DNA of 60,954 bases, the filler included, from Catajapyx aquilonaris (lineage: Eukaryota): assembly GCA_000934665.2 (NCBI GenBank). It is 3 parts of 3 records of this genome, joined end to end, with 100 filler letters (N's around TTAATTAATTAA, not from the genome) between each part and the next. Parts side by side here need not be neighbours in the genome. Positions count along the whole stretch, not along the records: positions 40,675 to 60,954 come from KZ539512.1; 2 more parts are not named here. One strand, given 5' to 3'. The notes under the pieces are model-generated. The model ran no database searches. It saw only the letters and a program-made list of their open reading frames with translations, and was not told where the DNA came from. Within the stretch, counting starts at the first letter, position 1; every line of letters starts with the position of its first letter. Of this stretch, positions 888 through 58,627 are shown in pieces. A program made the translations under genes and the position numbers.

Positions 888-1104
888 GGTGGACTAGGAC
901 TGTGATCCTCTGCATAATTTTTTGTATGTTTTACTAGACAATCACTTTAGATGTGACCCACACCAATAAGTGTCTGGCGCCTGTGTCTAATTGACCAAGC
1001 TACATAACTGCACGAATGATCTGGCAAATGGCTGCACAATTAAGGAGATTCCACTGTATTTATATTATTTTATTCACAAAAATCATGGTGCTTTGACAAC
1101 TTAC

Positions 1105-4100: not shown

Positions 4101-7100
4101 TCATGCAGAGTGGAGCCGTCTCTGGCTTCGTCTTGGGTGGAATCTCCGACAGACTAATCCACTCGGGGGAGTTCACAAAACGATTAAGCAGCGACATTGC
4201 ACTTGCACTTAGCACATCCCCTCCTAGTCACCCTGCCCTTGGACCAGGGAGCTTCGCCAAAAGGTTCCCTGAAAAGGGCCAAAGATGGCCCAGCACAGGG
4301 TAATTTAAAAAAAAAAAAAAAACATACAACAACAATGTAACAAGAAACTCCTCTGGTTCCATACTTTGTGGGGCACCCTGTACATCGAAACCTTCAATAA
4401 GTAATTGTGCCATTTTCTCATTCAGAACAGTTTATCGGTTCAGGAAAAAATGGAAACGGGCAGAAATTGGTTTTTGTAAGCCAACAACTGGTAGGTAATA
4501 TTACAAGTGTTTCCATTTGGTTACATTATTGAGAGACAATAATGGCACAACAGTGATTGTGTGCTGATTCAGGTGGCCATGCTCTACAGGCAATGTTGCA
4601 CTGTGCCGCTAAAAATTATTTTTTTCTAGTGTGCTACAGAGACAAATAAATTGTTTTGGAGTGCCAGTTCTTCACTTTTATTTGTTACTGTTTTCAAAGA
4701 TTTGCTCAATGTACCATGGTGATGGCAAGATGAAAGCACCTCATAACTACATAAGTATGTAAGGGATGATTTGGTATATTTTTTCCCTGCTTAACTGATG
4801 CCCAGTGACCATGTCACATGACTTTTCAAAGGGAAACACATTATCATCTAACAAGGTGTCTGACAGGGTTAACTGACAGAATTCCCAAGATTAAGTCCTG
4901 AGTCTGTTACAGCAATTCAAGCTACAGTATAATGATAATTTTGGAACGAGGCTGATCAAAAAAGACTGGGAATAATATTTTTCCTGAACTATTCGTTAGT
5001 CTGGATCAATGGTCACATGGTCTTTTTAAAGGTACTCCCCATCCATTTCAATGCACTATTTCAACAGTTTTATCCTATCGTCCAAGACATGGCACAAGAC
5101 ATTCTTCTTAAACTCCTTTTGGATAGCCTCAGATTTCTTCAGGACAGTAGTAGATGTATCGGTGTCCAGTAGCTTGGATTTCAAAGTGGGGAATTTAAAA
5201 AGTTAAATAGAGCCAGGTCAGGGGCATACGGTTGTTGCGGCGCACAGTTGATGTTTATTTTAGCCAGATATTTCATTATGACTTTCACAACATGAGGCCT
5301 CACATTGTCGTGATGCAGTCTCCATCCACTTGAATAAAGGTCCAGGCTTTTTTTTTTGGCAATGTGCTTCCTGATAGGTTATTTTATTTTATTTCATTTT
5401 TATTTTATTTTTAGTTACCCTGTGCCTTCCTTTACAGGATATTTAGGGGAGCTCCACTCCCTTACAATGTGTAAGTACAAAATAAAGAGGACATTTTTAA
5501 TACTTTGATACCAAACAGTGCAACACATTAACATTTGTGTGCATTACCAAAAAGAAAAACCCATAAACTTCTCAGTACTGATACAATCATATCCAATAAA
5601 TTCAGAGCGCCTTTGAAAAAAAAAGAAAACCTGGTAAGCGAGTTCCTTGGACACTTCAGAACCTTACCCTGTAAGTAAAAGGTGGGCGATAAGTTACGGA
5701 TATTGATTATTAGACGGGTAATGGACAGGGGTAGTTCGCCTCTGAAATATGACTCGGATGCATATCTTGCATGCGCCTCAGCATAATAACGATAACTCTC
5801 CGATTTTCCAAGGTCCAAAAGATCTTGCAGTTTGAGGTTTGACAGGATCCGGGAAAGGGATATCGAAATATCAATTGTTTGCCCAGGCGACCAGGATTTG
5901 CTTAGCCCAGAGTTTAAGTTGTCCAATCTGCATAGCCAGCTATAAGCATTCGGAAGTCTCGAATTGAAGGAGTGGCACGCGCAAGCCATGGCCATACCGG
6001 TAAGCGACTCTGGTGGTTTGTCTAATTGTTTATTATAAAATTTAATCACCTGTCGAATCGGACAATAGGCGTAGGAAGTACCCGGCTGTAGAGCAGAGGA
6101 TCAAAAAGAATTTCTTAAGAAACTGGTTTGCTTCCAGATAGTCTTTAACACTGAGAGGTTGTACTGTCCAGTGACAGAAGTGTGTGGGGGAACTGCATGT
6201 TTATCCCAGGTGAAAACAGAATTTGATGGCCACATACTGCTCCTTGTTTGTCACTTCCATTGTACTTGGAGGCGAAATAGAATGAGCCATCGTTGCAATG
6301 AGCAGAGTAGCCAGACGAATGGTCATAGGGTGGTGGCATCCGGCCACCTCATAAAACGAAGGCCGCAGTTTTCAGTTATAGCACTGTCAAAGCTGTAAAT
6401 TCAATGCAAGATATTTTTTTAAAATCATTCTCAGTCTTTTTTGATCAGCCCTCACCTGATCACCTGTTAAAATGTGTATGCAACATACTTCAATTATTAT
6501 CAGTACATCTACCTAAATACACAGTACACTGGTGGCTCGAACTTCGAACTTAATTTGTTCCAGGTCGTCGTTCGAACTCTGAATCAGTTTTCCCCATAAG
6601 AAATAGTGGAAAGTGAATTAATCCGTTCCCAGACCGTAAACAATACCCATTTTGATAAACTTAAGTAAGAAAGTGCGGGGAGGCATGGTGGCCGAGTCTG
6701 TAATGACTTGGCTTGCTGAGCGGAAGGTCCCGGGTTCGATCCTCACCCAGGAGCTCCCTTTCGCCTGCGTCAGGAGGGTCTCTGACCCGCGCCTTGGAGA
6801 TGTCTGGCAACCTAACCTCCAGGGAGACTGCACATGACCCCGGTAAAACGACATAGCACCTGCACCCTTGTCTCCTCCCCAGAAATGCCCATCCCTACAT
6901 GTCCCTTCTTCCCTGCACCAGTGATGGGAGAAAAAATTGTCAAGAAAATCGCTAGAAAAAAAATTGTGGTATTCCAGTCCCCAAAAGGGCCCCTGGCCCT
7001 ATCACGGGATATTACAAAAAAAAAAATGCACATCAATTAAGGTAAATGTAACAAGATTAAATGCCCTAAATAATAAATTGAATCATGAAAATAATAAATA

Positions 7101-10100
7101 AAATATGTAAACACTGTAATAAGAAAATTGCAATTAGTGTACAAGTGAGGAGTGATGGCCCCTGTGGGACTGGTGGTGAAAGAGAAAGATTACTGTTTGG
7201 AAGAGGAGTTACCTTCCATTATACAGTATATATCCAAGCACACCAAAAACAAAAGCGATAAGAGCAATGAAGACACCTGAGGGTAACGCAAGCGATTCTT
7301 TCACAGCAACTTGGGCGAAAAACAGATGGCATTTATGCAGTTTATGCGTTTATCTGTGGTTTCCCACGGTCCTCCCAGGATAATTCCGGGGTCGTTTCTG
7401 TAAAAATAGGCTACAGCCGCTTCTTTCCGTCCCTATCCTATCCCAAAAAGGAAAGTGAAATGAAAGCAAAGAGTTCCAGTCAAAACAAAATTGGGATGAA
7501 CTCCTCCCCTAAAGAGCTGCTAGCTGATAATGGGGTATGAATTATTGTTTATTATTATTATGCGTTTATGAGCATTTTTTCACTGTGAGTGTAGTTTGAA
7601 TTTAGAAGCATCGTTCGACCTTTGAGTCAAATTTTTCTGGAATTTTAGAGTTTGAACTCGGGAACATTCTAACTTAGTGGCGATCGAAGTACAAAGTTCC
7701 ACTGTATTCTGGACTTTAAATGCTGGACACACTCACATCACTAGCATACCTTAAATATGGATGGATCAGTGTAAAACTCAGGGATGCACTCATCTGGAGT
7801 CCACTGCTGCATGCGCTGGATTGATGATGGGTATTCTGCAGGAACCCATTTACTCCTAACATACTTGCACAGGATTTCCTTTGGTGTTTGCCTTGCTTTG
7901 TACACATAGTAGGTAATTTCTGACAGAACGTCGGAAATGTGGTGAGGTACCTGCCGGAAAATGGATATTAGAAGCCACAACGTCACTAGTAATGCCTTCA
8001 CACACTCACCCCAAGGTTACCACCCATGTCCTGACACACTCCATCATACGTCAGATCCAACTGCCTGTCTCCCTTGTTCAGGCGGAACTTTGATTTGGTT
8101 AAGTCTCGCCAGCCTCCATATGGACTAGAAAAATCCATGATCCAAGGCAGAACAGGGTGATGGTTGGGATTCCCAAAACGTCTCTGGGCCAAATAGTTGA
8201 GCGCCATCAGGTAGTCATAGTTAGATACCCTTCCATGAACCCAAAGGTCTACCAGCTGCCCAAGGGCTAGTTGATGGGTGGGGTGTTCTAGATCACTTCC
8301 TTCATTCTTTAAAGCTAACAAAATAGACTCCATCCCTTGTGATATACTGCTTGGAGCATGATTTGAGCGTGCCCTTGAATTGGTATCTTCATTCACTGAC
8401 ACTGGAAATATGTTAGCACTCACACTAGGCATCACATGCACCCACAAGTTCTTTTGCATGGTGATATCACACAGTGTTAGGTCACCAATAGCCAGTCCAC
8501 GGTCGTGCATGTTGCGGACAAATTGCATCAGCTGGTAAAGAATGAATAGGGGTTTTGCTACAGAACTGTTCACTAGGCCAGGGCTGAAGGTAACACAGTC
8601 GCTCACTGAGAACATTTCATGGGGTTGTATTATCAGGAAGCTATGTTTTGTCTCCAAAACACAATAAGCAGGTAGCACATTAGTGTGAGTTTCGAAATTT
8701 TTGGTCTTAACACTTGCATCTGCACTGTCACTCTTCGAAAGTTTCTCCAAGTCAATCAAAGGACAATTGTATATTCGGCACAGCACATCTCTAACAACAG
8801 TATTGCAATCCACAAATGAAATGCCTCCCAACTCTTTCCCTTCACTGGAATGTGCTGAAACAAAATATCCATATTTAGAGACCTAAGATATAATATATCC
8901 TTTAACAATGGCTACTAATATGCAGACATGCCTTAATCTAAGGTCACATTTTGTCCAGGTTGGAACAGAAGTGATGGTGAATAATGTATACGGGTCATTG
9001 CGCGTGAAATCAACACGAGGTTTGCTCGAGAATTTTAGATTTCCAAAATAGTTTGCAGGGAGATAGACCTATCCCTAAACTCTAGATATCCCAAGTATTT
9101 CGCTTCAATGTCCTCAAGGTCACGAGAGGTGAGGGGATATATCCAGGGGGGCAAATTGGACTTTCAAACCGAGCCACTTTCAGAGTCGAGGATCTCAAAA
9201 ACCATGCGCCGTAGCGACTTCTTTCATGAAATGTTTGTTTCAGATCATAGAACGTAGAATTTGAAGATGTAATCACTTATGCGATACCAGTATATGTATC
9301 GTGTAATGAGTTACTGCCTCCACAATAAGTATATTTTTGTCAAAATTTGCTCTCTTTCGGAATTTTTTACTGCCATATTGTATTCATTTGCGAACATTAT
9401 ACCTTGTTGGAGACATATCGATGTACCTGATCTCTCGTAAATTATTTAGCATTGTACAATATATAAACTCGGAGAAATTAACAGTCAAATTTTGAAGAAA
9501 CCTCATTTTGGCCATTATTGACGCCCAAAAAAAGGTCTGTGGGACGACGACTAAAAATCAGAGAGTGAGTTATTCGGAAAGTGCAAAAGGTGGGCTTTCA
9601 GAATATATCAGCCTCGTATATGATAATCGGACCTGAACAGACGGTAAGGCCTTTTGTTTGAAGGCATGTTTCGCCGGCATCTGTACCCGGCCATCATCGA
9701 ATGGCTTCAGACTCACATGTGTTCTCCCGTGGGGGCAATATGATGGCCGGGTAAAGACGCCACAGCTGCCGGCGGAAACATACCTTCAAACAAAAGATCC
9801 TCGGTTCGAATTTGACACCCCCCCCCCCCCCCCCCCCCNCCCCCCCCCAAATCCCCTCACCTTTCGTGACCTTGAGGACATCGAAACAAAATACTTGGGA
9901 AATCTAGAGTTCAGGAATAGGTCTATCTCCCTAAAAAATATTTTGAAAATCTAAAATTCACGAGCACACCTCATGATGATTTCACGAGGAATGACCCATA
10001 CAGTAGAACCATGATTATAAGCCCTATGAATATCTGTCTTCTTGGCATGTCCGTGTCCTGCTCCTATAGACACAGCATCCTACTTACAAAACCTATGAAC

Positions 10101-21842: not shown

Positions 21843-22703
21843 TCAATTCTTAGGCGTATTGTCCACAGGATCAGCTGCCGACCTGCCATATCTTCTGATC
21901 TGTCCTCTTGTACGTCCATACAGCGCCTGAATACGGTACCGGTCGTCCCGAGGCAAAACAAAATTCCTCGGAAAGAGTTGGTACGTAGGGAACATCAATG
22001 CTCGTCTGTCTTCAGAATGACCCAGTCCCAAAGAGTGTCCGAACTCGTGTGCAGCCACAAAGAAAATGCTGATCTGATTACCCCTGGAAGGATTGACAGC
22101 CCAGAACTCGTCGTCGTCGAAGTGCGCGTCTCCTCCGATGCCACCGCCAGGAAAGTATGCATGAGCCAGAACTGCTCCTCGACCGTCGAAGGCGTTCCCG
22201 TCAGCATGGGAGCCTCTGGCGAATGTCACCAGAATGTCCGCACGACCGTTGGTCTCGGTGAATCTCAAAGGAGAGTTTTTGGCCCACACGTCAAGGGCGC
22301 GCGACAGTTCACGTCGTAACACGTCGTTCCTGATGCCTCGGACCCTGGTGCCTCGGACCAACCTCCAAGTCAGGTGGGTTTTACCCCATCCGCGACCCAG
22401 ACTGCTGGGACCGTACCTGATCTCGGCTCCTACGTCGGGCATACCGCATCGGGGCTTCTTCATAAAGGTGCGTGTCTTGGCGTCCATGCGTCCAGTGGCA
22501 GGTAATCCCATGAAGGACTGCATCCGACGTAAGGCCTGGCTGATTTTGCTTGGTGTCATCGTAGAGTTGTCTTCTTTGCCCATGTACCCGTACTTGCTGA
22601 GGTACGACATTTCTTCTTCCTTCATGGTCATGGGTTCTGGGAGCGTGGTTGCACCCATTGTAACAATGACCAAGGAAAGGAGCAGAGCTAGCGGGGCGAA
22701 CAT
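21843..22703 (-). CDS. Matrix metalloproteinase (M10A), secreted, minimal domain form, single coding exon, 286 aa
   Basis: Hydrophobic signal peptide, prodomain (YLSKYGYM...ALRRMQSFMGLPATG), cysteine switch PRCGMPD, structural-zinc/calcium loop HADGNAFDG..VLAHAYFPG..GDAHFDDDE.W, catalytic HEFGHSLGLGHS, Met-turn ALMFP, IQALYG, then a short tail and stop. Confidence 0.95.
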   Translation of the reverse strand: MFAPLALLLSLVIVTMGATTLPEPMTMKEEEMSYLSKYGYMGKEDNSTMTPSKISQALRRMQSFMGLPATGRMDAKTRTFMKKPRCGMPDVGAEIRYGPSSLGRGWGKTHLTWRLVRGTRVRGIRNDVLRRELSRALDVWAKNSPLRFTETNGRADILVTFARGSHADGNAFDGRGAVLAHAYFPGGGIGGDAHFDDDEFWAVNPSRGNQISIFFVAAHEFGHSLGLGHSEDRRALMFPTYQLFPRNFVLPRDDRYRIQALYGRTRGQIRRYGRSAADPVDNTPKN

Positions 22704-25700
22704 TGTGAATATCTAATGTGGTATGTCTACTGAACTTGTGCAAAAGCTACATGCTTCCTTCTCAGGTTGGCCACCACGACCATTGATATCAACCAACTTC
22801 CTCAGGTTATCAACGGATATGCGGGAACTTAACAGGAAAACCTCTTCCATGGAAGAAATAGATATTGTATCGTACTGTAGGAACTGATAAGGAATTTACT
22901 CGCATTTAGTTGATTAAAGGTGGCCAGGGAAATGTTCATACAGTATAAGTATGAGTATGTACTAATCTAAGATATACATGACTAAAATGCAATAATAGAA
23001 TAATTCCAAATAAATAAACAATTGAATACCAAATAAATAATATTAAATGCAAATTCATCATTAAATTGGCCTTGATTTATAGGCCAATAATAAATCGCTA
23101 GCTAAAAACGGACATTTCGAACAGCCTGGAGGTTTTTCTATGAACTGCAAGTCATATTTATTTACCTTGAAAACAAGTTTTCGGGCGTTCCCCTTTGTAC
23201 ATGGCCTGTTCCCGCGTATCGTACGTAGGCGACTACGGGGGGGGAAGTACCTACCGGAATGATTCTGACAAAGTGGGAATCCAAGAAGAGGGCTATAAAA
23301 AGAGCATTTTGGAGAAATATTGTCCTTCAGCTGCTCTCTATTGACCCCAATTACTGGTTAATTGCAGATATATTCCCCATAACTTGACCGAACCATGCAG
23401 TTGAAAGTGAAGAGGTAATTTCTCTCAATTCTCTAATGAAGGCCATCAGAGAATATAAGTAAGCAAAAAAGGCGCAACTTTTTGCTAATACGTACAGTAT
23501 ATATATTTTAGTGCTGATGTTATGGTAAGTATACAAGTACAATAATAAAACATCGTAAATCGCAGAATAGTATAGGGGTGGGAATTTTTATATAGCTATT
23601 TTCTACCTATTACTGTAATAATATTATTAATTAAATAATTTTATGTTTTAAAATCGATAACGAAATCGTGAAACGGGGAGATACACTACAAGTGTATTTT
23701 AAAATGAATTTCACAGGATCCGGGCATATGGATTCAGCAGAAATAAGGTGTTCCAAACATATGCTGAATTTCCTGTGATCTTTGTCCTGTTAATACTTCG
23801 TCGCGACTTTGTGCCTGTTGGCTCCAATTCACTTTTCTGTAGGCCTACGCATATGTTTTTTTTTGCCACCAATGTTGTTATTTTTTGGGGCCCTTCAGTT
23901 TTAGCAATAAAAATGGCATTGAAATTGAGTACCGGTACCCGTGACTATAAGCTCATTCTATCGATAAATACAGTACCGTATTGTTGGTCTCGGCACTCTC
24001 TGAAGTATGCTAAATACCTTACGTATACTGCAGTTCTTGCCAAAAGGAGGGAAAAAAAGGCCTCAGAACCCAATAACCCTCAATCTGGAACCTCCCATTA
24101 AATGTGCATAAGAAATGTTTCAAAAAGTCAGCATTAAAAACAGCAATTTAAGTACGGCCTGAGAAAATTGTTTAAAATCTTGGAACCTATCTCATTTACT
24201 TAACTTACATTATAATTTTGTCTCATTTTACGCCTTTTCACTTTAAGCCGCATTTTTCTGGAACCAATTACCGGCAAAATGGTTTAGGGCCTATAAAGCC
24301 TATATGATGCGATATGCTACGCATTGTTGCCATCTCTCATCTTGGTTATTAATCTTACTATACAGGAAGTTTCTGAGGTTGTTAGCCTCGGGGTTCTTGG
24401 GTAAAGAAGACCATAGGCGTTGCTGAAGCCAAAGTTGTGTCTTTCGACAGGTGTAACCCTCGCAAGTTCATTAAGGGTTAACTGATGATCAATAATTTCT
24501 GATTTGGTTCTTTTCATGTGACATTCTGAAATACAACAGTGCTTATAGTTGACATTGTCATTATTTTCTTAACTACATAATATTCTCGATTTCTCTTTTG
24601 CCCAATTGCCCGAGTGACCGTTCTGTTCATTGCACACTTCACTCATCGATAAACTGTGATGACGTAGTAGCACTATGATCGAATCATGCAATAACCGTTG
24701 CAGATGAAACGCAGTTGTATCTACTTGACATTGAACAAACAAGACCACTAACAGATTAACTGACAGTGAGTGCGCTACATTAGATTATTTGGCGTCATTT
24801 TAAGTGGGATTACTATGCAGACAATAAAACAATATCAATTAGGCTGCATTATTGCTTCTTTATGGTCATTTTATCCACGAGCAGCTTGAAGGTGTTTTTC
24901 TGAAACAAAAGGTGCAAATGCAGTGTAACACATGAGTGTAAAGCATTTTTTATTGCATAGTCGTATAAAAACAGAGTCATCATTTTGATTGCCGTATAGT
25001 CTTTGGAATATTGACAGGAACATACATGCACAAAATGTTTCAGCTACCAACAATTTAAAAACCTGCATAAAAAACACTACTATTTATCATAATATGTTGA
25101 GTATCACAGTTGAGCAAATCATAGTTGCACATACAGCAAGAATATTGGTCCCTATATGAGTAGCCTATACTATCACTTGCCTTCCATTATTGCCACGTCA
25201 CCATTGCACATCTATGGAAAAATGTGCGTTTATTTATAAAATCTAAATACTAACTTAATGATTTTTGCGCACGCCTCGTAATGTCATTTGAGATATAAAT
25301 CTACGCAAAATTGCCTTACGAGCAAGAAAATAAAAGTATTTCAAATCTGGGAGCTAACAATAAGTAAGATTCATTCATTATCCTTTCTATTATTCACGGT
25401 TACAGTAGTAATAACTTATGCGTTTCATAATTATGTCAAAGCCAACTTGGACCAGACATAACTTACAACCTTTATAATCACCCTGGATAAACCATGAGTT
25501 TCTGTCCTTCTCCTGTCTTTAAACACTATAGAGTTGTACATGACGGAACACTAATGTGTGACTTTCTGAGTTTTGCTTCGTGCATGTAACTCATTAGTGT
25601 GTAGCCTTCAGTGTGTAACGGACAAGTGAAATAAATTCTCACCATCTACATTCACAGATGAATGTTATAAAATCCAGGATTCACTTATGCTTATCTCCAT

Positions 25701-26146: not shown

Positions 26147-29100
26147 TCAACTACCCATACCATTTGCATTAAGTTTGTGACCTTCCTCCTTGTCTTCCGA
26201 TGTCTTGACTTGGTCATATCTTTCCCTGCTTGTGCTATTTTGCCTGGCAGGCAATTGAAGCATGGCAAACACGAATATTAGCAAAGCTCCAAGGCCTAGA
26301 GTAACGCAAGCCAGCATAAAACCCAGTCCAGGTAGGGATGCCACCAGTTTCATTTTGGACAAAAGTTTGTCATCCATTTCGTAGCTATGGCTGATCCACA
26401 TGACGGGGAAAAAGACCCTCGGAAGGTGCTCAGTCAATCTGAAAATAGCAGTACCAATAATTGTTATTCATACTCAGTCTTCAGCTTTTCTCGGTGCAGA
26501 ATGACCACTACATATACTAGGTAATAAAACTGCAATTCACAACCTGATCACACCGGTTTGGGGTTTTTTTTTTACACAATAAGTCAGTAGGTAGGATTGT
26601 CCTTTACAAGGTCACCCCTTTTACGCACACACACAGATACATTATTTTACATAGGTGTGGGAAATACCAGTTCGTTGGAAAAATAATATATGCACATATT
26701 ACCGTTAAACTCTTGTGCAACATTAGGCTAGCCGATATGCGCATTGTAATGAAACATATGTTTGTATGCAAGATATTTCATTCAATCCATTCCATTTTCT
26801 GTAGAGTTCACACACACAACAATACAGTAACTTATTTATAGACTTCAGTATTACCTTATTAGCAAAATGTGTAGCTATTCACTGTGACGACCGTGTAAAA
26901 TGACAAATTGAAAGAGGTCAACCAACTTGATGGGTATATTTTCACTACAGTAAAACCTCGATATAAAGCTCTTCAAGGGATCGCTCAAAAGTAGCGTTAG
27001 AAGCGGGATAGCGTTACATGCGGGAAAATTTACATTATGGAAATGATGAAGGGACAGGCAAAAATGGGCGTTATATGCGGGAGCGTTATATCGAGGTATT
27101 ACTGTATACATTGCATATAACTGCGAAATCTATATAAATAAAGCCGTTTGTGAGTCTGTCTGTCTGTCTGTCCGCCTGCCAACCGTCATTTGCCTGCCAT
27201 CAAGAGCTGCGGTCCGGGTGGGAAGGACGGGAGGGGTTGCAGCTGAGGTGGGATTAGAGTAGATCCAGATTGTGAGCAGGTGGGAGGAGGGAGCGCCGGA
27301 GAGGAGCTATTGTTCTCCGGCGGCTTAATCAGGAGCAGATGGACAAGGTGGCACGTGCAAAAGTCCACTTTTTGCCAAGTCCAAAACGTCTGGGAAAACT
27401 GTCATGGCAGCTCTCTGTGCGTAAAAATTTTCACGGGGCTACTGGCAGGTGTTTTCCCTTCATTCATTTCTTCCCGGGCAACGCCGGGTGCCGCGGCTAG
27501 TAATTCTATAAGCTTAATTAATTACAGAAACAAGAATCAAAGATCAAACTGTGACATCTGAAACTTACTGTATTCCTTCAATTGGCTGGATTAAGAAGTT
27601 GAGTTGTGTCTTCGCACTAGCCTTGACAGTCACACCGGCTGTCTGCAGGTAGATAAAATGTGACATCAGAGTCCAATCATTAACCTTGAGTGAAAGAGGT
27701 CTTTAATTGAACTCACAGGTTCCAGATCCAAGTAAAACTGGTGCTTGGACTTGTTAGGTTCCATCCCTTCCACTGCTTCAAGATAGATGGGATCGGCGTC
27801 GTAGAAATGTGGTAAAGACATGAAGGTCGGTGCACCGCGTCTGCATGACGTGACGTTATGAAGGCCGTTGGGTGCACATATAGAGTCCGGTTCACGACCA
27901 CAGTAGCACTCATGCCCATCCTTCTTGGCTCCGAAAAATGTCTCGTCGGATCCGTACCTGTATACCGTTAGACCTTTCATGTCTACCTTTTCTTGGAATG
28001 GCAACGTGAGGATCCTGCAAGAAAAATATGCCGATTAAGTGTCTACATTTCAATATTAAATTAAAGTTGAACATATTTATTTATTAAAAACCCAGTAACG
28101 AGACCCTTGTTCTCTATGACCAACCTGCAGAGTCCGTATGCATATAACGAAATGTTGTCTTGCTTCCGGCCTGGGGGAAAGAGAGATCCATCTGATGCAT
28201 TGACACTGTTGCATGGTGCATTGTAGAAGTCATTTGTACTGCTGTAATTCCAGGAGGCCAGTCTTCCGAGCTTATTTATGTCATCTTCTCCAGTGTAAAG
28301 ATTGAAGGCACCGTCAATACCAAGAGAGCCATTTCTCTGTTAAACAATGCATTCAGTTAGTACAAGTCTTTAAATTGTGCGTAAGACGACGTACCCCGTA
28401 GAAAAACCCGAATTTATCGGGCGCTCCAGTTCCGGGAATGAATGAAGCTACTTTGAGCAATGGATCCGGATATCCGTCAAACATGATGTCCCCGACCCTT
28501 CTTCGAACTAGTGCCTTTATTCCCATCATGCTCAGAGTTTTGGACATGACGAATTTCACAACGTCTGATGCATACCGAGCTTGATGTACCATGGCCTAAA
28601 ATAAAATAGATCATTAATGGAATATATAGCCACCGCTTTTTGGTTCACACTTACGAAGAAGATGAAATGTAATAATAAAACTTACAATAATTGGAACGTT
28701 GAGAGTGTAGATAATGTCATCTAATGATGCTTCTGTCAAGGACGGTTCAAACACCCATGATATGTTGAGCTGATATGAAATAGTTAGGTTTGAGTTATGC
28801 TGAGCAGTTGGTCTGTACCGCGTTTCTCTGAAAGTGAGCATAAATATAAAGTTAGCCTTTACTAGAACCTTCAAATGTCATTAATTTTTTTGTCACGCCA
28901 TCATTAAACTGCATTGAAAATAAATATTTTTTTCCCTGACATTAACCTTCAAAGGACTTGTTCTTAGTCCCACAAGAAGGTGAAGGATGTGAAATAATCA
29001 TGAGACATTCAGAGAGAGTTCTTGCATAATGTCATGGTCTGGGAGAATGGGGAACCGGGCCCCTACATAAGTGAATTTATTTCGTTGATTTATTACTCAT

Positions 29101-43455: not shown

Positions 43456-44071
43456 TTAAATAGCGCAGCTCAAAGAAAATGGCCTCTCTCGTGTATGAAT
43501 TCGCATGTGCTTTTTCAAATTACCTGGATGATTAAATTTTTTCTGGCACACTTCACAAGAAAACGGTTTTTCTCCTGTATGAATTTGCAAGTGCCTTTTC
43601 AACTTACGTGATTCACGAAACTTTTTCTGACACATCTCACAGGTGAATGGTTTTTCTCCTGTGTGAATTCGCATGTGATCTTTCAAATTATATAAATAAG
43701 GGAATTTTTTATCGCACACATCACAAGAAAACGGGCTTTCTCCTGTATGAAGTCGCTTGTGAGCTTTCAAATTATATAAATAAGGGAATTTTTATCGCAC
43801 ACATCACAAGAAAACGGGCTTTCTCCTGTATGAATTCGCATGTGAGCTTTCAAATTATATAAATAAGGGAATTTTTTATCGCACACATCACAAGGAAACG
43901 GGCTTTCTCCTGTGTGAATTCGCATGTGAGCTTTCAAATTATATAAATAAGAGAATTTTTTATCGCACACATCACAAGAAAACGGGCTTTCTCCTGTATG
44001 AAGTCGCTTGTGAGCTTTCAAATTATATGAATAAGGGAATTTTTTATGGCACACATCACAAGAAAACGGGT
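43456..44071 (-). pseudogene. C2H2 zinc-finger array (7 fingers), 5'-truncated, one frameshift
   Basis: Repeated CxxC...HxxxH with TGE(S/K)PF linkers. A 1-bp loss in an A-run near 43790 splits it into two ORFs, and an in-frame stop lies a few codons upstream of the first finger. Confidence 0.7.
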
Positions 44072-44963
44072 TTCCCCGCGCTCAATCACTATTCCCCCAC
44101 TCCTTACCCGAGCTAACCAAATAAGCTATTGGCAGTGGGCAGTCAGGCAAAGGTGGCCGAAACTGTTGCTTTGTCTGTGCCGAGGGGTAAATCACTCGGA
44201 AGTTGAGCGTACAACGGACTTGACGAGTGATTAACCCCTCGTCGTGTGCCGGCAGCAAGTTAGTGTCGTCGCGTCGGCCGGATTTTACGTCGCGAGTAGG
44301 CCTATACCCATGGCCGGCATGTAACGGGGGGTCCACATGCGATCCCGGATTATCTGGGGAAAGGCTGGTGAGGTCTATCTTCGACTTCTAGCTCCGGTCC
44401 AAACAGGAGCCATGTCACTTCTCCTACTTACACGTATCTACCCCCCGACCAGGCGCAGAGATCCGCCCGGTCGTAAGCAGCTTCGCCACGAAGGTGTATC
44501 CCTTTGCGCTCTTTTGTGAATCCTCCCCCACTGGGAGGACGCAGGGGATGGCGGCAGAGGCATAAGAATCTCACGAGGTTTCTGACCAAAAAGGCAAAGT
44601 GTTACCATTGATAAAAACATGCGAATTGGACTAAAATAAATATCAAATATAAATTAAACTAAAATGTGGCCGCATATCAAAGCTACTGGTTGTTCCCACT
44701 TTAATAGCCATTTATAAACTGCAGTTTTTAATTGTCCAAAACAGACTTACTTTTACCTTTTACAAAGTCGGGTTGAAAAAACTTCCCACTGTTTAATTAG
44801 ACACCTAAATATTTGATTGCCACATAACAAGCTAACCAACTCGTACAAATTATGCATAAGCTATTAATCAACAGTTCAATACCCGGGCCTCTATGATGGT
44901 ATAATACAAACCAGCCTGACACCTTAATCATGAAAACATATGTACGTATTGCATGTGGTTCAC

Positions 44964-50340: not shown

Positions 50341-52207
50341 GCTAGTGATGAGCCGAAAATAGCTACGCTGCTATTAAGTAGCTGCTGGTCTAGAGTAGCT
50401 GGCTATTTTAACTAATATTTACAAACCTGCACGTTGGCGCGCGCATGTTGCCAGATGATGAATTCAATGTCGTGAGGGTTGCGGGCTATTCAGGATCACA
50501 TTAATAAGATCCTTTGCTGGGTAGGTGGGCCACCCCAATGGGCGAAAAACTGACCTAAAGGGACATGCGTCCCCTGATCCCTTGACCCCTCATTAAGGGG
50601 GTAAAGGTCACTTAAGCTAATAACAACCGTAGTTTCCAACTGATTTTCTTCAAATTTGTTGGGTAGGTTGCCCACCCCAATGGGCGAAAAATTGACATAG
50701 TTTGACCTCCGTCCCATGACCCGTTGAGCCCTCTTTCAGGGGGCAAATATCTTCGATTGATATTTCACAGGTTATTTTTCCGCTTGTGTGGAATGTGGAA
50801 TGGTATTGTTTTTCGACTACAACCCTCCAACTCCTTGTCCAAAATTTGTTATGGACCGTTTAGATTTCAACTGGAACAGCTTATAGAGAATTATGACACT
50901 GGGAAAAGGCTTGTGACGTTTGAAGTGAGGATTATTGTTCCCCCCCCCCCCCCCCACANCCCCCCCCCCCCAAGCAACACAGGCTTGCCAACCTTACGTT
51001 ACTTCTGGTGTTACGTGACTATTTTCGGTTCCATGCATTTAATAAATATCAAGGTGACTTGCCAGCCTGTCCATCGCTAATCGTGATGCAAATAAATTCA
51101 ACTTTTAGTAAAAAAGAAAAAAAATGGCAAAAGCCACAATGCATTCAATTTCCGTTTAGTTCCGTCAACTGTAGTGAAGCGATGCCTTGCTTTGTTTTTC
51201 TGGAAGCACTATTACATTACCCTTGTTGCTCAATCATATCAGATTCTTTAGAAGGAAAAAAAAGCCAATAATATTCCTTGCTAACCATGTTAGTTCTTTA
51301 TTTTGTTTTTAACAAAGTCAGTGGCACATTCAAAATTATCAACTATAGATACAGCTTGGTAGACTTAAACTTGTGTGGGCCATGAAAATAATGAAATATT
51401 TAAGGGTGTTTTTTTCGTGTGTTTTTGTTGTTGTTGTTGCTGCTGCTTTGTGCTGCATTTCTGACTGAAGAGAAATGCTTGGGTTTCTTTTTTTTTAATG
51501 TTGAAAATAATGGACAAACTGGGCTGTTAACCACATCTTGTCATCATGTAAAAATAATAAATAAAAAAAATCAGTATTCTTTAACCCTTACGAAGGACGA
51601 GATAATAAAAAAGTGACTGGTATGTAGAGTCTTCATTGTGCTGTACATATTATTGCAGTCAAGCCTGTAAATCCTCGAATGGGAAGGAAATAAAAATGCA
51701 GGACTTACAAGATGTGTCTTCACTCACAAACACAGAATACCAAGCTTTGGATTTTGAAGTCTTTATTACTAAACTATTCAACGCTAAGCCAAATAGAACA
51801 TTTTATTCTTTACAGTAACAGTTATTTTTGCTGCCGGGAAGAAAAAACACTTGGGGAAAGAGCTTACGCTCATTCTCTATGTGCATAATATGCACATAGG
51901 GAGGGATAACAACAAATATACACGACTGGATTAAAATTACACTTGCCACTTGCCTGTATCTTTGAGAATTGAAACCTTACTTAATGACCACAGGCAAAGC
52001 GAAAGAGCTGTAGAGAACATTTTAAAAATCCAACACTGCTCAACGTACTTAAATAAGGCAGGGAATGCAAACAATATGAACTGTGGGGGACCACGAAGAA
52101 CAAAAAAAAAAGGGGGGGGGGAGCAGGGGAGGAGTATGGGGGATGTATAGATGGCGATGTATCTTCTTCATAGTGTCCAAAGTTGGGATGGATCACATGT
52201 CCCAATT

Positions 52208-55200
52208 TTAAACACAGGCTCCTCCAGTCTGCTCCTGAAAAACGTCGATGACATCATCGTTCTCCATCTCCATCTTAAAAAAGATAACGGCAATGGTCAG
52301 GCCTTAAAAGACGGTTCACAGGCCACCACAATAATGTCAAGCCTTATCACAATGAACCACCGTTCCAATTACCCCCTTGCATGCTTATTAATGAAGAGAT
52401 TGCCTCACCTGCATGGGTGTATCATTCTCCCAAATCCGGACTCCATCAAATAAGAACCGGAGAGACAGAGGTTGGGCACCCTAAATGACAGAGTGACAGG
52501 GTTTTCATCAACTGCAACTAGGGCACACACCAAAGCACATTAATTTTTGAAACCTCACCACTCTCTGGTAGTACGCCGTTATCAGGACGCCCAGCGGAGT
52601 CGTCATCTTTACCCTAAATATGAGCTGGCTGCTGCCCTGCATGCGTCATTTTAACATATTATTCAACTGTTACAGTGGCATAAAAACTACAATTAATTTT
52701 GTGCAATAATAATTATTTCTCACTTGCGCCACCACCTTCAGCTTGATAATCCCACGTCCACGCCCTCCAATCTTAGGCTTCTTGTCCTATAATGGCAAAT
52801 GGATATGTCAGCAATGGAATTTCCCAAAGATCTTGAAGAGACACACATTGCATTGAAGCAGCCACAATTCGATTCTTCAAGGAACCAGAAAAAATTAATT
52901 ACTGGTGGAAGATTCTCGTTAGGGAGATATGATAATATTATTAATAAATGGTGATTAGATTTTCTCACCAATTAACGGCAACTGAAATCTGGCATTATGG
53001 TTTGTTGAGTGCAGTGGTCCCCAACTTGATAGTAGTTTGTAAACTATTGCAATGCATTTTCAATGACATTAGCGTTATTTTGACCCTGTTCAATGATAAC
53101 ATGCAGAACTAAAACAGGGTTAGGAATGCTATTGTCATTTGACTTCTAAATTTGAAGAAGCCCCGCCCCCAAGGGTGCGTTCAGTTATCGGTTTCCTGAC
53201 TATAGGTGAGCTAGGGTGACGTCACAAAATCAACAACATGGCTGAAAATCGAACGTGTTTTGTGACCCATCAATTTCCGTTTTCGCTGTCAGTTCCACTG
53301 GATCCCGATCCGTGCCATTTTTGACCTGGGGCACGACCTGGGATCAAAGCCGTAGTGCCTCAGGGTCAGCCATAGCAGGCTGGAACTCTAGCTGGTACCA
53401 GCAGCAGAAACACAATTATACAGGGGGTTCCCTGTAACTATGTAAAGACCTGCAGGGGTAATAGAGGCGACCAAGATAAGTATTTTTTTTACATAGGAAC
53501 CCGTGTCCGAAAACGCCATCTAGAGGGGCTTCATAGACAAGGAACGGGTGCGCTCATAGACGCGTCAGGCGGGAGGCGCTAGGCGAGCGGACTGTTTCGT
53601 TGATATTAAACAATGACGCGATGTGTCATATCCTGGCAACAACAGAGCAGTTGTTGTTCTCTATCCGCGCGTCTCCTAGGAGGTGGACTTTTGTTGCTAG
53701 ATGGCTCTGTTGTTGCCAGGTTATGGGACATAGCTTCGTTGATTACTATCCGCGCGCCATCTATCAACAAAACAGTCCGCTCGCCTAGCTCCTTTCGCGT
53801 GACGCGTCTGAGCCCACCCGTTCCTTGTCTATGAACCACATCTAGATGACATTTCCGGACATGGGTTCCTATGTGAAAAATTCTTGTCTTCGTCCCCTCC
53901 ACGGCCTATTACTCCTCTGGTCGCGTAACTCCCTCCCCCTATGAGTGAGCTTATAGCTTGCTTACGGACTTGGAGCTGACGTCCTCCACAGAGCACAACT
54001 TCGGGCGACTTCGGGCATTGGTTCGGGTGGCTGGCTCTGCGCCTTTCCCTACTCACCCATCTGCATTGGAAAGAATGGTTCAGGTTGGTTCAGAAAAGCG
54101 TCCGCCCGAACGTGACGTCAAAGTTGTGCTCCGTGGAGCGCCCGCCAGCGCCAAATAGAACATTCTACAGTGTGNNNNNNNNNNNNNNNNNGGGGGGGGC
54201 GCAACTAAACTCACGCCCTTCCCCGGCCAGATATGGAGTTGCGGTGAGCTGCTCCTCACTATTACCCCTGCAAGTCTTGACAGAGTTACAGGGATCACCC
54301 TGTACATTTATTTTCTCCGAGTTATTTACCAATCTCTTGTGGCAACCAGAACAATTGATATTTTTACAACGCAACCCATTAGGAATACGTATACCGGAAG
54401 AAAAAAGTGGCCAGAAGCATAGAACATTATTCGTATTCATATCTGTTCTGTACTGATGGACAAACCATTATGATGCAAGAGGTCGATTTGTTACAGCTGA
54501 CATGGACTATAAGGCATGGGTATTCTGGAACTCATATTTCAAAATAACCCACGAAATACTTTAGGAGGTCTTCTACACAAGTGTGACACAATTTGTGTGC
54601 AAGCCATGACTTATCCTGGTGACGAAATTGTACTCTTGAATATGCATAACACAACATCATCATAAAATCATATATTTTGGGTATTTCTTCACTGCTATAA
54701 TTCCCCAGAAAGGTAACAAAAGGAATAAAGTGATTCAATTCAGCCCCTTCTAGCCATTTAGTTCACTTCACATAAAAAAAAACCACAAGTAAAACTCAAA
54801 ATTTTACTAAAGAGAAAAACTCCTTGAGATATGACACCATGAGAAACACTGAATAAACAGTACCGAGTGTGAAGGGGGGGGGGGGGGGNAACAAAAGGAA
54901 TAAGTCATCATCAGCAGACATCATTATCATTCTGATAAACTGGTTCTTGAATTTATTGTCCTCATGATGGTACTAAAACCATGAGTTGTCACTGAATACA
55001 CATCAGTTCCCTTCGAAGCTTAACACAGTGGATCTACGGGTATGAAAATTAAAAGGCGAGTTTGTGGAAAATAGGGTGATGGAAGTTTTTAAGTGCTTGC
55101 CCTGAAATCAGCACCCAAAGAATTTGTTATTGGTCTTCCATCAAGTTTTTCCATTGCAGGCCTGTGTTATTAATAACTTTTGAACTGATGAAGTTAGACA

Positions 55201-57009
55201 ACAACTAAAAATGGACACTTTTTCACATGTCCATGAAACCTGCAAGTTCGCCAAAATTCATCAAAATCTGAGGTGGTCATTCCGAAAACTGTGCTGATTT
55301 GACACGGAATGACCCCAAAGTAACCATATCACACAACTGAAATGTCATCAATACAACTGAATTGTTGCTATTTTAAATCCTGAGTGTGCACCAATAGAAT
55401 GATGCATGCACAATAACATGCACAGCAATATTCCTAGTGGACTGAGAATTGAACCATGCTCTCCATCTTGCTACTCATGGACTCAGGAAGAGAAGTGAAA
55501 GTCATTGACTAATGATTTCAGCATGTGCAGTAGCAAGTTTGGTGGGTTTTGCAAGTATGGCGAAACACTATCTCGTAATACCAGATGGAATGTGGATCCA
55601 ATGGCAAGCTCAGAAACACGACAAGAATGACACATCATTGTCCACTGCCACCCCATGCTTGCAAATCATTAACAATAAGTGAGAAAGCATACCCCTGTTG
55701 CAGAGGACTCGCATGGAACTCCAAACTGAGAAGGTCAATGACCCCTCACCAGCAACCTGGAACACTGGAGTTTACTTAAAGTCAATTAATGTTCCCCCCC
55801 CTCCCACACACACATATCACATCCCCTTCACATCAGCAAACTCTGGCCATGTCAGCTGTTTTGGTCAATATCTTATACACACACAAAATGGGGTAGCCAG
55901 TGAACAAATTGCAGCATTTTGGAACATACAATCAAGCATTGCTGTTCTTATGTAATTACTAGGGCGAGCTGGCAACCCGTTCTGTATCCATGGTATCAGT
56001 GACATTGCTGACCAAAGAGTACTGCTATTATATAATATAATACCTAGAGGAGGTACTCCCTATCCTTTTCCATTAGACAGGCTGAGGCAGCCGCCATCTT
56101 GTTGGAGGTCATATTGTTGTTCTAACAGTTGTCTAGCAACTGGGACAACAACCAATAATGACAACTGGGCGATTAGTTCAATAATGTGAGGCGACCGCCA
56201 TCTTGACGGAGGTAATATTGTTGCCTGCATTGTTGCCTGCCTCACATTTCAGGCGGAGTGCCTCCTCTAGGTGTATATATAATATAGCAGAACTCTTTGT
56301 TGCTGACACGGGATTGTGCTGAAGTTACTATGGCAACAATGGGACACTGTTTCCATGACAATGTAATAACAATCATTGTTGATACAAGTAACTTGTTGCC
56401 ATGATGGATATAAAAGGGGCAAAACAAACTTTGCCTTTTATAGATAAACAGGATGACACAAATGTAGGGACACAATTCTCTTATGCACCAGAAAAGTGAC
56501 ACATCTCCAAAAAAAACAGTTTCGTATATAATATGCTTCAAGTTCAGCATCAACTGGCTTTAATCAATTTCTGTTCCTTTCTTCAGAATGACGATTGCAG
56601 AATGATTATTATCAAACGCTGTCTTACAATAGGGTTTTGAAGTCATAATAACAGACAAAATTACCGTATTCGACCAATAATATTATTGAGATCTGATGAC
56701 ATGTGTTATTACTTTACTACTTTTCTGGTGCATGAGCGAATTGTATTGTATTGTTGGTTGACAACTGCCAACCAACAATAGGCCCAACAACACAATAATT
56801 TTGCGTTCAAACTTTTGGGTCACCATGTAGATGGAAAACATGATCATAATAATTCCCACTAGAGGTAAATATTTCAGGCAAGTTGTAATCATGATGCATC
56901 CAGATCCTTCCCAAGTACGTGGCGGCCCTTTTAGAATCCCCTGCCTGTGTCTGCGGCCTCCCCCCTCGAACGGTTTGCCCCTTGTTCTGCCCCTCACCTG
57001 ATTGTCCAT
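52208..57009 (-). CDS. SUMO1: SUMO1-like small ubiquitin-related modifier, divergent, 96 aa, 5 coding exons
   Basis: Exons 56998-57009 (MDNQ), 52724-52786 (DKKPKIGGRGRGIIKLKVVAQ), 52559-52636 (GSSQLIFRVKMTTPLGVLITAYYQRV), 52409-52480 (GAQPLSLRFLFDGVRIWENDTPMQ), 52208-52273 (MEMENDDVIDVFQEQTGGACV*). All introns are phase-0 GT-AG, at the positions known for SUMO1 genes. The first exon assignment is less certain than the other four. Confidence 0.88.
53453..53918. mobile_element. Foldback MITE in SUMO intron 1
   Basis: cataggaaccc.tgtccg...catagacaaggaacgggtg...ctaggcgagcggactgtt versus its reverse complement at 53770-53880. Confidence 0.7.
56022..56290. repeat. Short element with inverted ends
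   Basis: ctgctatta..tata..acctagaggagg.actcc / ggagtgcctcctctaggt..tata..atagcag. Confidence 0.55.
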
Positions 57010-57399
57010 ATTCAACACTCTGGAGGTGATCTTCTACGGGTGCTGGTCCGACGGAGAGTTTCTTCGTCGGTAGATGCGGGGGGCGGACACGGGGCTGGAA
57101 CATGGGCTGGAAGCACAGCCGAACACGTAGTATGCTCTAATTGGAACAGAGAGAAAAAGAGGGGGTGGGAGGGAAGGGTGCAAGGGAGTGGGGAAGAGGG
57201 AGGTGGAGGGAGAATTAGAAGGAGGGTAGCCAACCTAAGATGGGCAATGAAAGGAACCGACAACAACGGAAAGGAATAGGGAAGGGGCGGGAGAGGATGG
57301 CAACACTGAACCAAAGAGGCGCGTATTTCCCCCACCCCCCTCCGTGGCACGCTGGCAAGATTGGCTACCCTGACACTTTGGGCGGAATTTCGGGCCTCT

Positions 57400-57500
57400 T
57401 TGTTCGACTTGGTGGCGCCATTGCGGGGCTCGGATGGTAGGTCTGCGCATGCGCTGGCTTTGGCGTGCGATGTTGTCATATGTCGAGATGAAGGCGGGAA
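57400..57500 (-). promoter_or_regulatory. Putative promoter of the SUMO1-like gene
   Basis: GC-rich patch with an NRF1/Ewg-type palindrome TGCGCATGCGC (57444-57454), upstream of the acceptor of the ATG-containing exon (57136). Confidence 0.4.
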
Positions 57501-58627
57501 TTTCAGTGTTTTAATTGAGATTCAACAAGAGCAATGTATCTCTTGGTTCCAATCGTTTAACTGGAGGTTAGCATGCAACGGACAATGTTTCTCTAAACCT
57601 CTAACTGCATGTCAAAGTTATAGTTGTTGACTATTGTAGTAGCGGAATCCGTTCTTGGCACGACCTGTTTCCATAACAAATTATGACATTGTAATCAACA
57701 CCGGCAATCAAACATTATTCATACCTTTGGAAACCAAATGAACGAACGAACAAACAAACTGTGCCTTTTATAATACATTTCAATCCGGATATAACAGACT
57801 TCAAGGGACCGAGGACCTCAGTATGTTACAGCCAAGTTGTCAGTTTTGCAACGAATACACAAAGTTTTCTGCTTTCGACATGCTTATAATGCGCGCTAAT
57901 GCCTGGTTAAGGAAACTACACACAAATATACAAAATTAGCTCACTCGTAAATGTATTACAACATGGCCAAAAAAAAATCCATCATTTTCTCATGCCTTTT
58001 CACTGCCAAAAATTGGATTAAAGGAAATCTTTTGACCTTTTCGGCAAGTGTTAGATCAGTGACAGGTGGGAAAATCACTGCCGCTCTCCGCTCCAGGAGT
58101 ATGCCATTCTTTCATGTGCATGGGAAAGGAAGCTGAGTAATCAAACAGCATATTTTTCCACCAAGAGACCAAGAAATATATTGTCTGTTATACACGAGAT
58201 GAGGTGAAAATAAGTATGTTATATCAGGAGTAAAAATGCACAGGGCGTTTTTGTCCACGCGCAGTGCTGCTTGTCACTTCCGGTGTTGAAGTAGGCGCGC
58301 TTAATTTGAACCCACACCTTGTCTGCGTGGGAATTACTTTACTTTGGGAATGAACATCAGGCTATATTTTGAGAGTAGACAAGTAGATAATGCGCACTTC
58401 AGGTTCAGGGTAGACCACTTCACTCGCCTTCGTTTGAATCCGCATGCTGTACCTTCAGGGCAGCCAAAGGTAAGCGTGTGATTGATAAGTTAGTATGGCA
58501 AAAGATGTTCCACTATATCAGTGGAAGGCATGAACAGAATTAGAGTAGGCCTACACATGTTGCTGAAGAACTAAACTGGTTTTATTTCTTAGGGCCCCAC
58601 TAGCCAGTTTCATTCAGCGTGCATGTA

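Follow-up and report, generated by a model that had tools for sequence, protein, structure and literature searches.

The window analysed here, a stretch of 60,954 nucleotides from Catajapyx aquilonaris, carries a SUMO1-type gene on its minus strand. Five phase-0 exons with coding lengths of 12, 63, 78, 72 and 66 nt (exons 1-5; the last includes the TAA stop) give an open frame of 96 codons that ends in QEQTGG plus three residues, and exon translations agree in position, length and frame with the five exons claimed by the earlier note. Downstream of a 5'UTR (57010-57139, the upstream end being approximate), the coding part of exon 1 (56998-57009) encodes MDNQ, has A at -3 and G at +4 of its start codon, and ends at a GTGAGG donor. 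Exon 2 (P0003; 52724-52786) encodes a basic tail with GGRGRG and strand beta1 (IKLKVV); exon 3 (P0001; 52559-52636) encodes strand beta2 and helix alpha1, the region of the SIM groove; exon 4 (P0002; 52409-52480) encodes the SLRFLFDG core and a loop with R70, W72 and M78; and exon 5 (P0004; 52208-52273) encodes the acidic patch, QEQTGG, a three-residue propeptide and the TAA. The 3'UTR (51711-52207) has AATAAA at 51802-51807 and 51762-51767. All of these features lie on the minus strand. A protease gene is the neighbour of the SUMO1-type gene.

Intron 1 (52787-56997, 4211 nt) is interrupted by N gaps and includes two repeats of very high copy number, while introns 2 (52637-52723, 87 nt), 3 (52481-52558, 78 nt) and 4 (52274-52408, 135 nt) are short and hold two, three and five in-frame stops, respectively. 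The donors of all four introns read GTGAG and the acceptors of introns 1-4 are TAG, CAG, TAG and AAG. As a pseudogene test we looked for intron loss and disabling changes, and found four canonical-ended introns, no frameshift and no premature stop; the splicing signals, di-glycine and short propeptide are intact, as had been proposed. Other SUMO1-type genes, represented by six genomic ORF fragments (P0132, P0133, P0135-P0137 and P0140), begin their last exon at the same residue.

To place the gene, we built a profile in which 100 canonical SUMO1-type monomers were joined by a single human SUMO2 unit and a single vertebrate SUMO1. With it we scored every six-frame stop-to-stop piece of the 61-kb window, 3176 in all. 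Exons 5, 4 and 3 ranked top (E = 1.6e-9, 4.7e-6 and 2.8e-5) and were colinear with it; among unrelated pieces, the lowest value was E = 1.2. By itself, exon 2 was below significance (E = 4.6), and no second SUMO-like exon was found elsewhere in the window. The best PDB matches of exons 3, 4 and 5, searched one by one, were SUMO or Smt3 chains, and exon 2 alone gave no match. Against Pfam, where single exons only were used, exon 4 reached 14.6 bits for Rad60-SLD (PF11976; cutoff 23.8) and the other three exons gave no SUMO match. Scored against canonical SUMO1-type monomers, the spliced protein reached 90-105 bits; human SUMO2 gave 70 bits per unit. The spliced protein aligned without gaps to Daphnia magna SUMO (P0255), with 54/89 residues identical (60-61%), and over 77 core columns it was 64% identical to the SUMO1 type versus 52% to SUMO2. 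The C-terminal Q-x-T-G-G and short propeptide, a hallmark of SUMO/Smt3, are present. On these alignments the gene is of arthropod SUMO1-type derivation, the earlier note having likewise assigned it to SUMO1; the canonical string used there for comparison (EIHFRVKMTT.MGKLKKSY) matches real SUMO1-type proteins such as P0255.

The predicted protein has nonetheless diverged strongly: changes affect about 40% of a sequence that normally hardly varies. We defined near-invariant positions as those at least 95% invariant in 100 reference monomers, drawn from the best 120 of 1342 matches; this gave 69 positions, and 'invariant' is here measured on a narrow sample, because the reference set lies close to one query and is rich in marine metatranscriptome sequences. 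The predicted protein differs at 24/69 of them, versus at most 4/69 in 99 of the 100 reference monomers, and canonical SUMO1-type proteins are about 90% alike. A relative-rate test of the predicted protein against Daphnia gave 14 unique changes versus 3 with a vertebrate SUMO1 outgroup (P = 0.008), and was flat (7 versus 8) with human SUMO2 as the outgroup. The amino-acid composition is atypical for the SUMO family. A SUMO phylogeny, for which the earlier note had called, put the predicted protein among the SUMO1-type rows on a terminal branch of 0.71 changes per site (median 0.013), the node itself being unresolved.

Family-invariant positions were kept at 24/27, versus 21/42 for SUMO1-specific positions (Fisher P = 0.0015), and 7 of the 21 altered SUMO1-specific positions carry the SUMO2 residue; the SUMO2/3-like TPL, AY and IDVF pointed out earlier are real in the alignment. 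Judged from this distribution, the changes are non-random in that they avoid positions invariant across the SUMO family, and they appear to sit mainly on surfaces read by partner proteins.

Roles of residues in enzyme and reader contacts were taken from the available text of PMC12687455. The acidic patch that faces E1 and E2 is kept (D67, E83, D85, D86 and D89), as are R63, R70 and Q94. We infer that the SUMO fold is retained. Since the fold core, acidic patch, R63, R70, Q94 and C-terminus are all present, the predicted protein would probably be trimmed after QEQTGG and pass through the SUMO E1 and Ubc9.

For the reader-facing surfaces, we take the groove positions (K39, K46, H43, K78 and others) to follow human numbering. 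The groove is described as a hydrophobic floor with a basic rim of K39, K46, H43 and K78 (PMC12687455, available text). Floor and rim residues F36, V38, L44, L47, K39 and R37 are kept; K46 is replaced by V, K48 by I, K49 by T and K78 by M; the claimed loss of helix lysines is real. At position 43 the residue is Pro, which SUMO2/3 also have, and position 72 is W. The acidic N-terminal tail that is usual in metazoan SUMO1 is absent: the tail is basic and RG-rich, with the GGRGRG arm described previously, and has a net charge of +3 (three lysines and three arginines) versus -4/-5 in P0245 and P0255. The whole protein has gone from -5/-6 to +1. The proposal of a remodelled interaction surface stands for the residues of the beta2/alpha1 rim and of the tail, but the beta2/alpha1 stretch as a whole hardly shifts in net charge (+3 versus +4), because two glutamates were lost along with three lysines. 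The large electrostatic shift is that of the tail and the whole protein.

The acidic tail of SUMO1 has been proposed to shield the SIM groove through ionic contacts (bioRxiv 10.1101/2024.01.04.574143, available text). Because the tail is basic here, this self-inhibition should be missing from the predicted protein. Acidic or phosphorylated SIMs would be expected to bind more weakly. The likely role would be that of a conjugatable tag with an altered set of readers.

We also examined run X5, which has a small share of words (0.08); none of the runs listed is recorded as RNA, and X5 is RNA-like by coverage. A 995-nt contig of this run (record 17) lies on 51711-51788 and 51919-52272, i.e. exon 5 and the 3'UTR, and on 57032-57055 in the 5'UTR. 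It joins 52272 to 57032 with 249 letters between, where 248 are expected from exons 1-4, and past 57055 it continues for 84 unaligned letters with only a loose likeness to the window. X5 depth is absent from flanking DNA and from intron sequence outside the repeats. There is no X5 cover on exons 2-4 of the window copy, the middle of the contig having other letters; this missing cover is no evidence against expression. Because the letters of exons 2-4 differ and the 5'UTR has diverged, the contig may be a related copy or allele. In DNA runs from the same organism (X1/X2), a second family of contigs aligns to the introns and skips exons 2 and 4 (52724-52789 and 52412-52502), and therefore at least one other coding version would be present. 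Masking by a human-DNA filter was considered as a cause of these skips and rejected, as other contigs from the same DNA runs cover those exons.

It is conceivable, if doubtful, that these contigs reflect two versions of a SUMO1-derived gene with introns and 3'UTR at least 90-97% alike and exons 2-4 and 5'UTR more than 10% apart, driven by diversifying selection. If so, this would be a SUMO under the kind of selection expected in conflict with viruses or transposons. RG repeats of PIWI proteins are methyl-arginine handles for Tudor-type readers, and the RG-rich basic tail could be such a handle too.

Searches for relatives with the same motifs found none: the tail or RG motif is in 0/138 fetched proteins (P0125-P0262). 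A word search that used 45 residues of open frame at exon 3 as its query returned no candidate sharing three words, which looks like an index miss because related proteins found otherwise carry FRVKMTT. Looking up the clusters of the closest canonical proteins returned no organism besides Daphnia.

On balance we favour a real gene, under selection and of arthropod SUMO1-type descent, that would have evolved unusually fast and changed its reader-facing surfaces. A functionless duplicate, decaying or untranscribed, would fit the 24 changes at near-invariant positions, the unusual composition, the exons 2-4 without direct RNA cover in X5 and the failure of both the word search and the 138 fetched proteins to yield a same-sequence relative. 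However, all 96 codons are open, the eight splice-site dinucleotides are intact, there is no indel relative to Daphnia SUMO over 89 residues, and family-invariant positions have been avoided. In simulations of random substitution at 36-41% protein divergence, only 8-10% of outcomes retained the frame and ATG, a figure that reflects substitutions alone; neither the 16 splice-site bases that are still intact nor the lack of indels enters into it. The open frame and intact splice sites despite this much change make decay quite improbable; on the sequence evidence, selection is the better reading of how the substitutions are distributed and of the unbroken frame. A SUMO fold that is not conjugated, and is a non-covalent decoy or regulator of SUMO enzymes, would suit the extensive surface changes and has a counterpart in human SUMO4, which may work mainly via non-covalent contacts (PMC12687455, available text). 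We consider this very improbable here: QEQTGG and the enzyme-facing residues are retained, and the SUMO4-type proline before GG that blocks maturation is absent.

Somewhat unlikely, in our estimate, is that this is the sole, ordinary SUMO1 orthologue of its lineage, with constraint relaxed or shifted while SUMO3 does the essential work, on the way to the loss of SUMO1 seen in beetles, moths and flies. Basal insects and Hymenoptera have one SUMO1 and one SUMO3 (PMC4866545, available text); the tail start QD.KP and EMENDDVI are as in Daphnia-type SUMO1, the last-intron position is common to other SUMO1-type genes, and the 61-kb window has no second SUMO exon. Yet the second contig family would imply at least one other coding version, and constraint would not simply have been relaxed, since the family-invariant residues are kept and the frame is intact. 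Under the favoured reading of a selected, fast-evolved SUMO1-type gene, we regard the co-existence of a canonical SUMO1 in the same genome as about evenly balanced.

The SUMO1 type is among the most conserved of animal proteins, and the 100 reference sequences (from the best 120 of 1342 matches) hardly vary. The arthropod SUMOs described so far are only SUMO1 and SUMO3, of which SUMO1 disappeared after the Hymenoptera had split off, according to the available text of PMC4866545; our literature searches on SUMO paralogue evolution turned up no paper on an arthropod SUMO beyond these two or on a strongly diverged one. A natural, intact version with the enzyme-facing surfaces kept and the reader-facing surfaces rewritten would be a ready-made experiment on how paralogue specificity is encoded, as well as a test, provided by nature, of the self-inhibition recently proposed for the SUMO1 tail. 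Should the second, coding-divergent copy be true, this would be a rare instance of a core modifier evolving rapidly.

Human SUMO4 and SUMO5, both rarely expressed, are comparable in being derived from a main SUMO and in their uncertain conjugation status (PMC12687455, available text). They differ in being 85-88% identical to their parents, versus about 60% here, and the predicted gene has introns and lacks the maturation-blocking proline. The non-archetype SUMO3 and SUMO5 of Arabidopsis are likewise fast-diverging copies beside conserved archetypes, with new functions proposed (PMC6680281, available text), but belong to another kingdom and arose independently. In the engineered human SUMO1 ED11,12KK, acidic tail residues were also made basic, which strengthened binding to SIM partners (bioRxiv 10.1101/2024.01.04.574143, available text); here a natural reversal is combined with loss of rim lysines, and for this reason the net effect on SIM binding is not readable from the mutant. 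The closest likeness is to arthropod SUMO1 (Daphnia magna P0255 and Blattella BgSUMO1; PMC4866545), with equal length, no gaps, a common last-intron position, the blocks IKLKVV, FRVKMTT, SLRFLFDG, EMENDDVI and QEQTGG in common and a shared QD.KP tail start, whereas the predicted protein is only 60-61% identical, has lost K46, K48, K49 and K78, carries W72 and has a tail of +3 rather than -4/-5.

Read from its sequence, the SUMO1-type gene is a real, intact and fast-evolved member of the SUMO1 lineage. The five phase-0 exons proposed in the earlier note were borne out by open pieces on the minus strand and by canonical intron ends: the coding part of exon 1 (MDNQ, 56998-57009) is followed by exon 2 (52724-52786), exon 3 (52559-52636), exon 4 (52409-52480) and exon 5 with its TAA stop (52208-52273), all translated. 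All four introns have GTGAG donors, with TAG, CAG, TAG and AAG as acceptors. Intron 1 is 4211 nt long; introns 2, 3 and 4 (within 52274-52723) are 87, 78 and 135 nt, each divisible by 3, placing exons 2-5 in a common genomic frame. Since these three introns contain 2, 3 and 5 in-frame stops, respectively, a retained intron would truncate the protein. The last-intron position is common to six other SUMO1-type genes, whose genomic last-exon fragments start at exon 5's first residue; the remaining exon breaks are presumably those of human SUMO1. The ATG is flanked by A at -3 and by G at +4. Upstream of the 5'UTR on the minus strand, 350-445 nt 5' of the start codon, a CCAAT box (57360-57364) and a GCGCATGCGC palindrome (57445-57454), which we take to be NRF1-like, suggest a putative housekeeping-type promoter. 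Two AATAAA motifs lie ~400-445 nt downstream of the stop.

Intron 1 carries two very-high-copy repeats (53344-54054 and 55951-56424), where contig depths from the DNA runs add up to as much as 131,783 and 21,040 versus ~25-400 in other bins. The repeats show numerous joints, as well as opposite-strand joints, and their inverted arms resemble a small non-autonomous transposon.

Database searches used single exon-derived pieces, while the whole protein was compared as exons joined by coordinates. Against the PDB, SUMO/Smt3 chains were the top matches of the exon 3 peptide (E 0.0055-0.16; 113 matches at E<=10) and the exon 4 peptide (E 1.4e-4 to 0.02; 135 matches), and the exon 5 peptide (76 matches) found a tandem SUMO2 construct at E 7e-9 and single SUMO2 at E 2e-4; the exon 2 peptide alone had no PDB match. 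The sole SUMO-type match in per-exon Pfam searches was Rad60-SLD on exon 4, below threshold. When a canonical-SUMO profile was run against the 3176 six-frame pieces of the window, exons 5, 4 and 3 ranked top (E 1.6e-9, 4.7e-6 and 2.8e-5) with colinear matches; the best unrelated piece had E 1.2, and no further SUMO-like exon was found among all 3176. None of four other minus-strand genes is linked to SUMO: WDR81 (BEACH exon, 1101-8882), a matrix metalloprotease (21843-22712), a CD36-family scavenger receptor (27666-28339) and a multi-C2H2 zinc-finger gene (43456-44081). The WDR81 exon matched arthropods first (125 proteins at E<=1e-10 among 1361 candidates), at 44-46% identity, which points to an arthropod host without a close relative in the searched collection.

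A 31-residue frame around exon 5 matched 16 proteins among 1.84 billion representatives (E<=0.001), comprising head-to-tail SUMO1-type repeats and last-exon fragments. With an 81-residue unit of one repeat protein (P0125) as query, 1342 proteins matched (E<=0.001); the best 120 were listed, including Daphnia magna and Caligus clemensi SUMO, and 100 of these formed the reference set under a single-unit rule (one LRF, KLKV at most once), the 20 left out having two or partial units. In gapless comparisons, the protein is identical to Daphnia SUMO (P0255) at 54/89 positions and to a canonical SUMO1-type protein (P0245) at 54/90; identity to a human SUMO2 construct is 45/100. Scored per single unit, SUMO1-type monomers reached 90-105 bits and SUMO2 reached 70 bits.

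The divergence is large. Among the reference monomers, 69 positions reach 95% invariance or more, as gauged on a narrow sample (the top of a single match list, with many marine metatranscriptome sequences), and 24 of them are changed in the Catajapyx protein; 99 of the 100 monomers differ at no more than 4, the outlier (P0157, 25 differences) appearing partial. A tree built from 58 distinct rows gave the protein a terminal branch of 0.71 changes/site against a median of 0.013 (vertebrate SUMO1, 0.44; human SUMO2, 0.89), with its node unresolved and its amino-acid make-up departing from the family's. With vertebrate SUMO1 as outgroup, there were 14 unique changes versus 3 in Daphnia (p=0.008). 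With human SUMO2 as outgroup the counts were flat (7 versus 8) because the protein has SUMO2-like states.

The changes are unevenly spread: 24 of 27 positions also identical in human SUMO2 and vertebrate SUMO1 are kept, versus 21 of 42 SUMO1-specific near-invariant positions (Fisher p=0.0015). At 7 of the 21 changed SUMO1-specific positions the SUMO2 residue is present. In a random-substitution simulation on the coding sequence, frame and ATG survived in 8-10% of 20,000 trials at 36-41% protein divergence, and a rough estimate gives a ~3% chance of all 16 splice-site bases surviving such divergence. The gene has no indel, so the odds of neutral intactness are lower still, these odds presupposing that the divergence arose within the window's own copy.

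Residue positions follow what we take to be human SUMO1 numbering. Residue roles in SUMO surfaces are those given in PMC12687455. In the predicted protein, putative conjugation determinants are kept and putative reader surfaces are rewritten. Retained are the floor of the SUMO-interacting motif (SIM) groove (F36, V38, L44, L47), R37 and K39, the acidic patch (D67, E83, D85, D86 and, as E to D, position 89), and R63, R70 and Q94 with QEQTGG. The lysines at 46, 48, 49 and 78 are replaced by V, I, T and M, respectively, and position 43 is P; Q replaces both E33 and E53, and D30, R69 and N72 have become G, V and W. The beta2/alpha1 stretch, described as remodelled in the earlier note, has lost K46, K48 and K49; its net charge falls only from +4 to +3. 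The N-terminal tail goes from -4/-5 in canonical proteins to +3, and the whole protein from -5/-6 to +1. According to a preprint (10.1101/2024.01.04.574143), acidic residues of the SUMO1 tail contact basic core residues, shielding the groove, and an ED11,12KK mutant binds SIM partners more strongly. By analogy with these SUMO1 data, the Catajapyx protein would be without tail self-inhibition, and the basic rim presented to acidic or phospho-SIMs would be weaker.

Five runs matched the region: four DNA runs from one 2014 sample, and X5, a small 2022 run of unstated kind. Across 50500-57600, X5 depth was confined to the 3'UTR and exon 5, a short 5'UTR piece and the intron-1 repeats. Its 995-nt contig spans 51711-52272 at ~97% likeness, ending one base before completing exon 5's first codon, then joins 57032-57055, past which 84 further letters loosely resemble the window. 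Between the joined pieces are 249 unplaced letters versus 248 expected for exons 1-4 and intervening UTR. From the depth pattern and these lengths, X5 resembles an RNA run, and the contig looks like a spliced message of full length. The contig's exons 2-4 had no placement on the window at 90% likeness, and the message may come from another copy or allele than the window's own. In the DNA runs, a second family of contigs, with depth about half as high, carries X5's variants. One difference visible in exon 5, 52239 A>T, turns IDVF into canonical IDVY. The second family aligns to the introns, a nearby stretch included despite ~8% difference, and skips 52412-52502 (~exon 4) and 52724-52789 (~exon 2). 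Our reading, judged from alignment coverage, is that the organism has a second copy or allele with coding exons more diverged than introns. The gene may be an extra paralogue, belong to a pair of diversifying alleles, or be the only SUMO1 of its lineage.

In two of the DNA runs (X1 and X2), 51500-53100 is covered by two families of contigs whose depths are about equal. They are 2-3% apart in the 3'UTR and ~8% apart in the proximal part of intron 1 (13 of 156 nt differ), with indels of 4, 42 and 53 nt; the organism is either very highly heterozygous here or has a recent duplicate that was collapsed.

Head-to-tail SUMO1-type repeats (P0125-P0128, P0131, P0134 and P0138) occur in public collections; the unit's GG is followed by a short acidic linker and the next unit, a layout resembling polyubiquitin. 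A review describes single proteins as the form in which SUMO paralogues are expressed.

According to PMC4866545, basal insects and Hymenoptera have one SUMO1 and one SUMO3, and SUMO1 loss postdates the Hymenoptera split. Among the papers listed in literature searches on SUMO-paralogue evolution, none was on a third or strongly diverged arthropod SUMO. Derived copies are described elsewhere: human SUMO4 and SUMO5 are 85-88% identical to their parents (PMC12687455), and plants likewise have derived copies (PMC6680281). The Catajapyx protein has the same QD.KP start of the tail and the same EMENDDVI as Daphnia-type SUMO.
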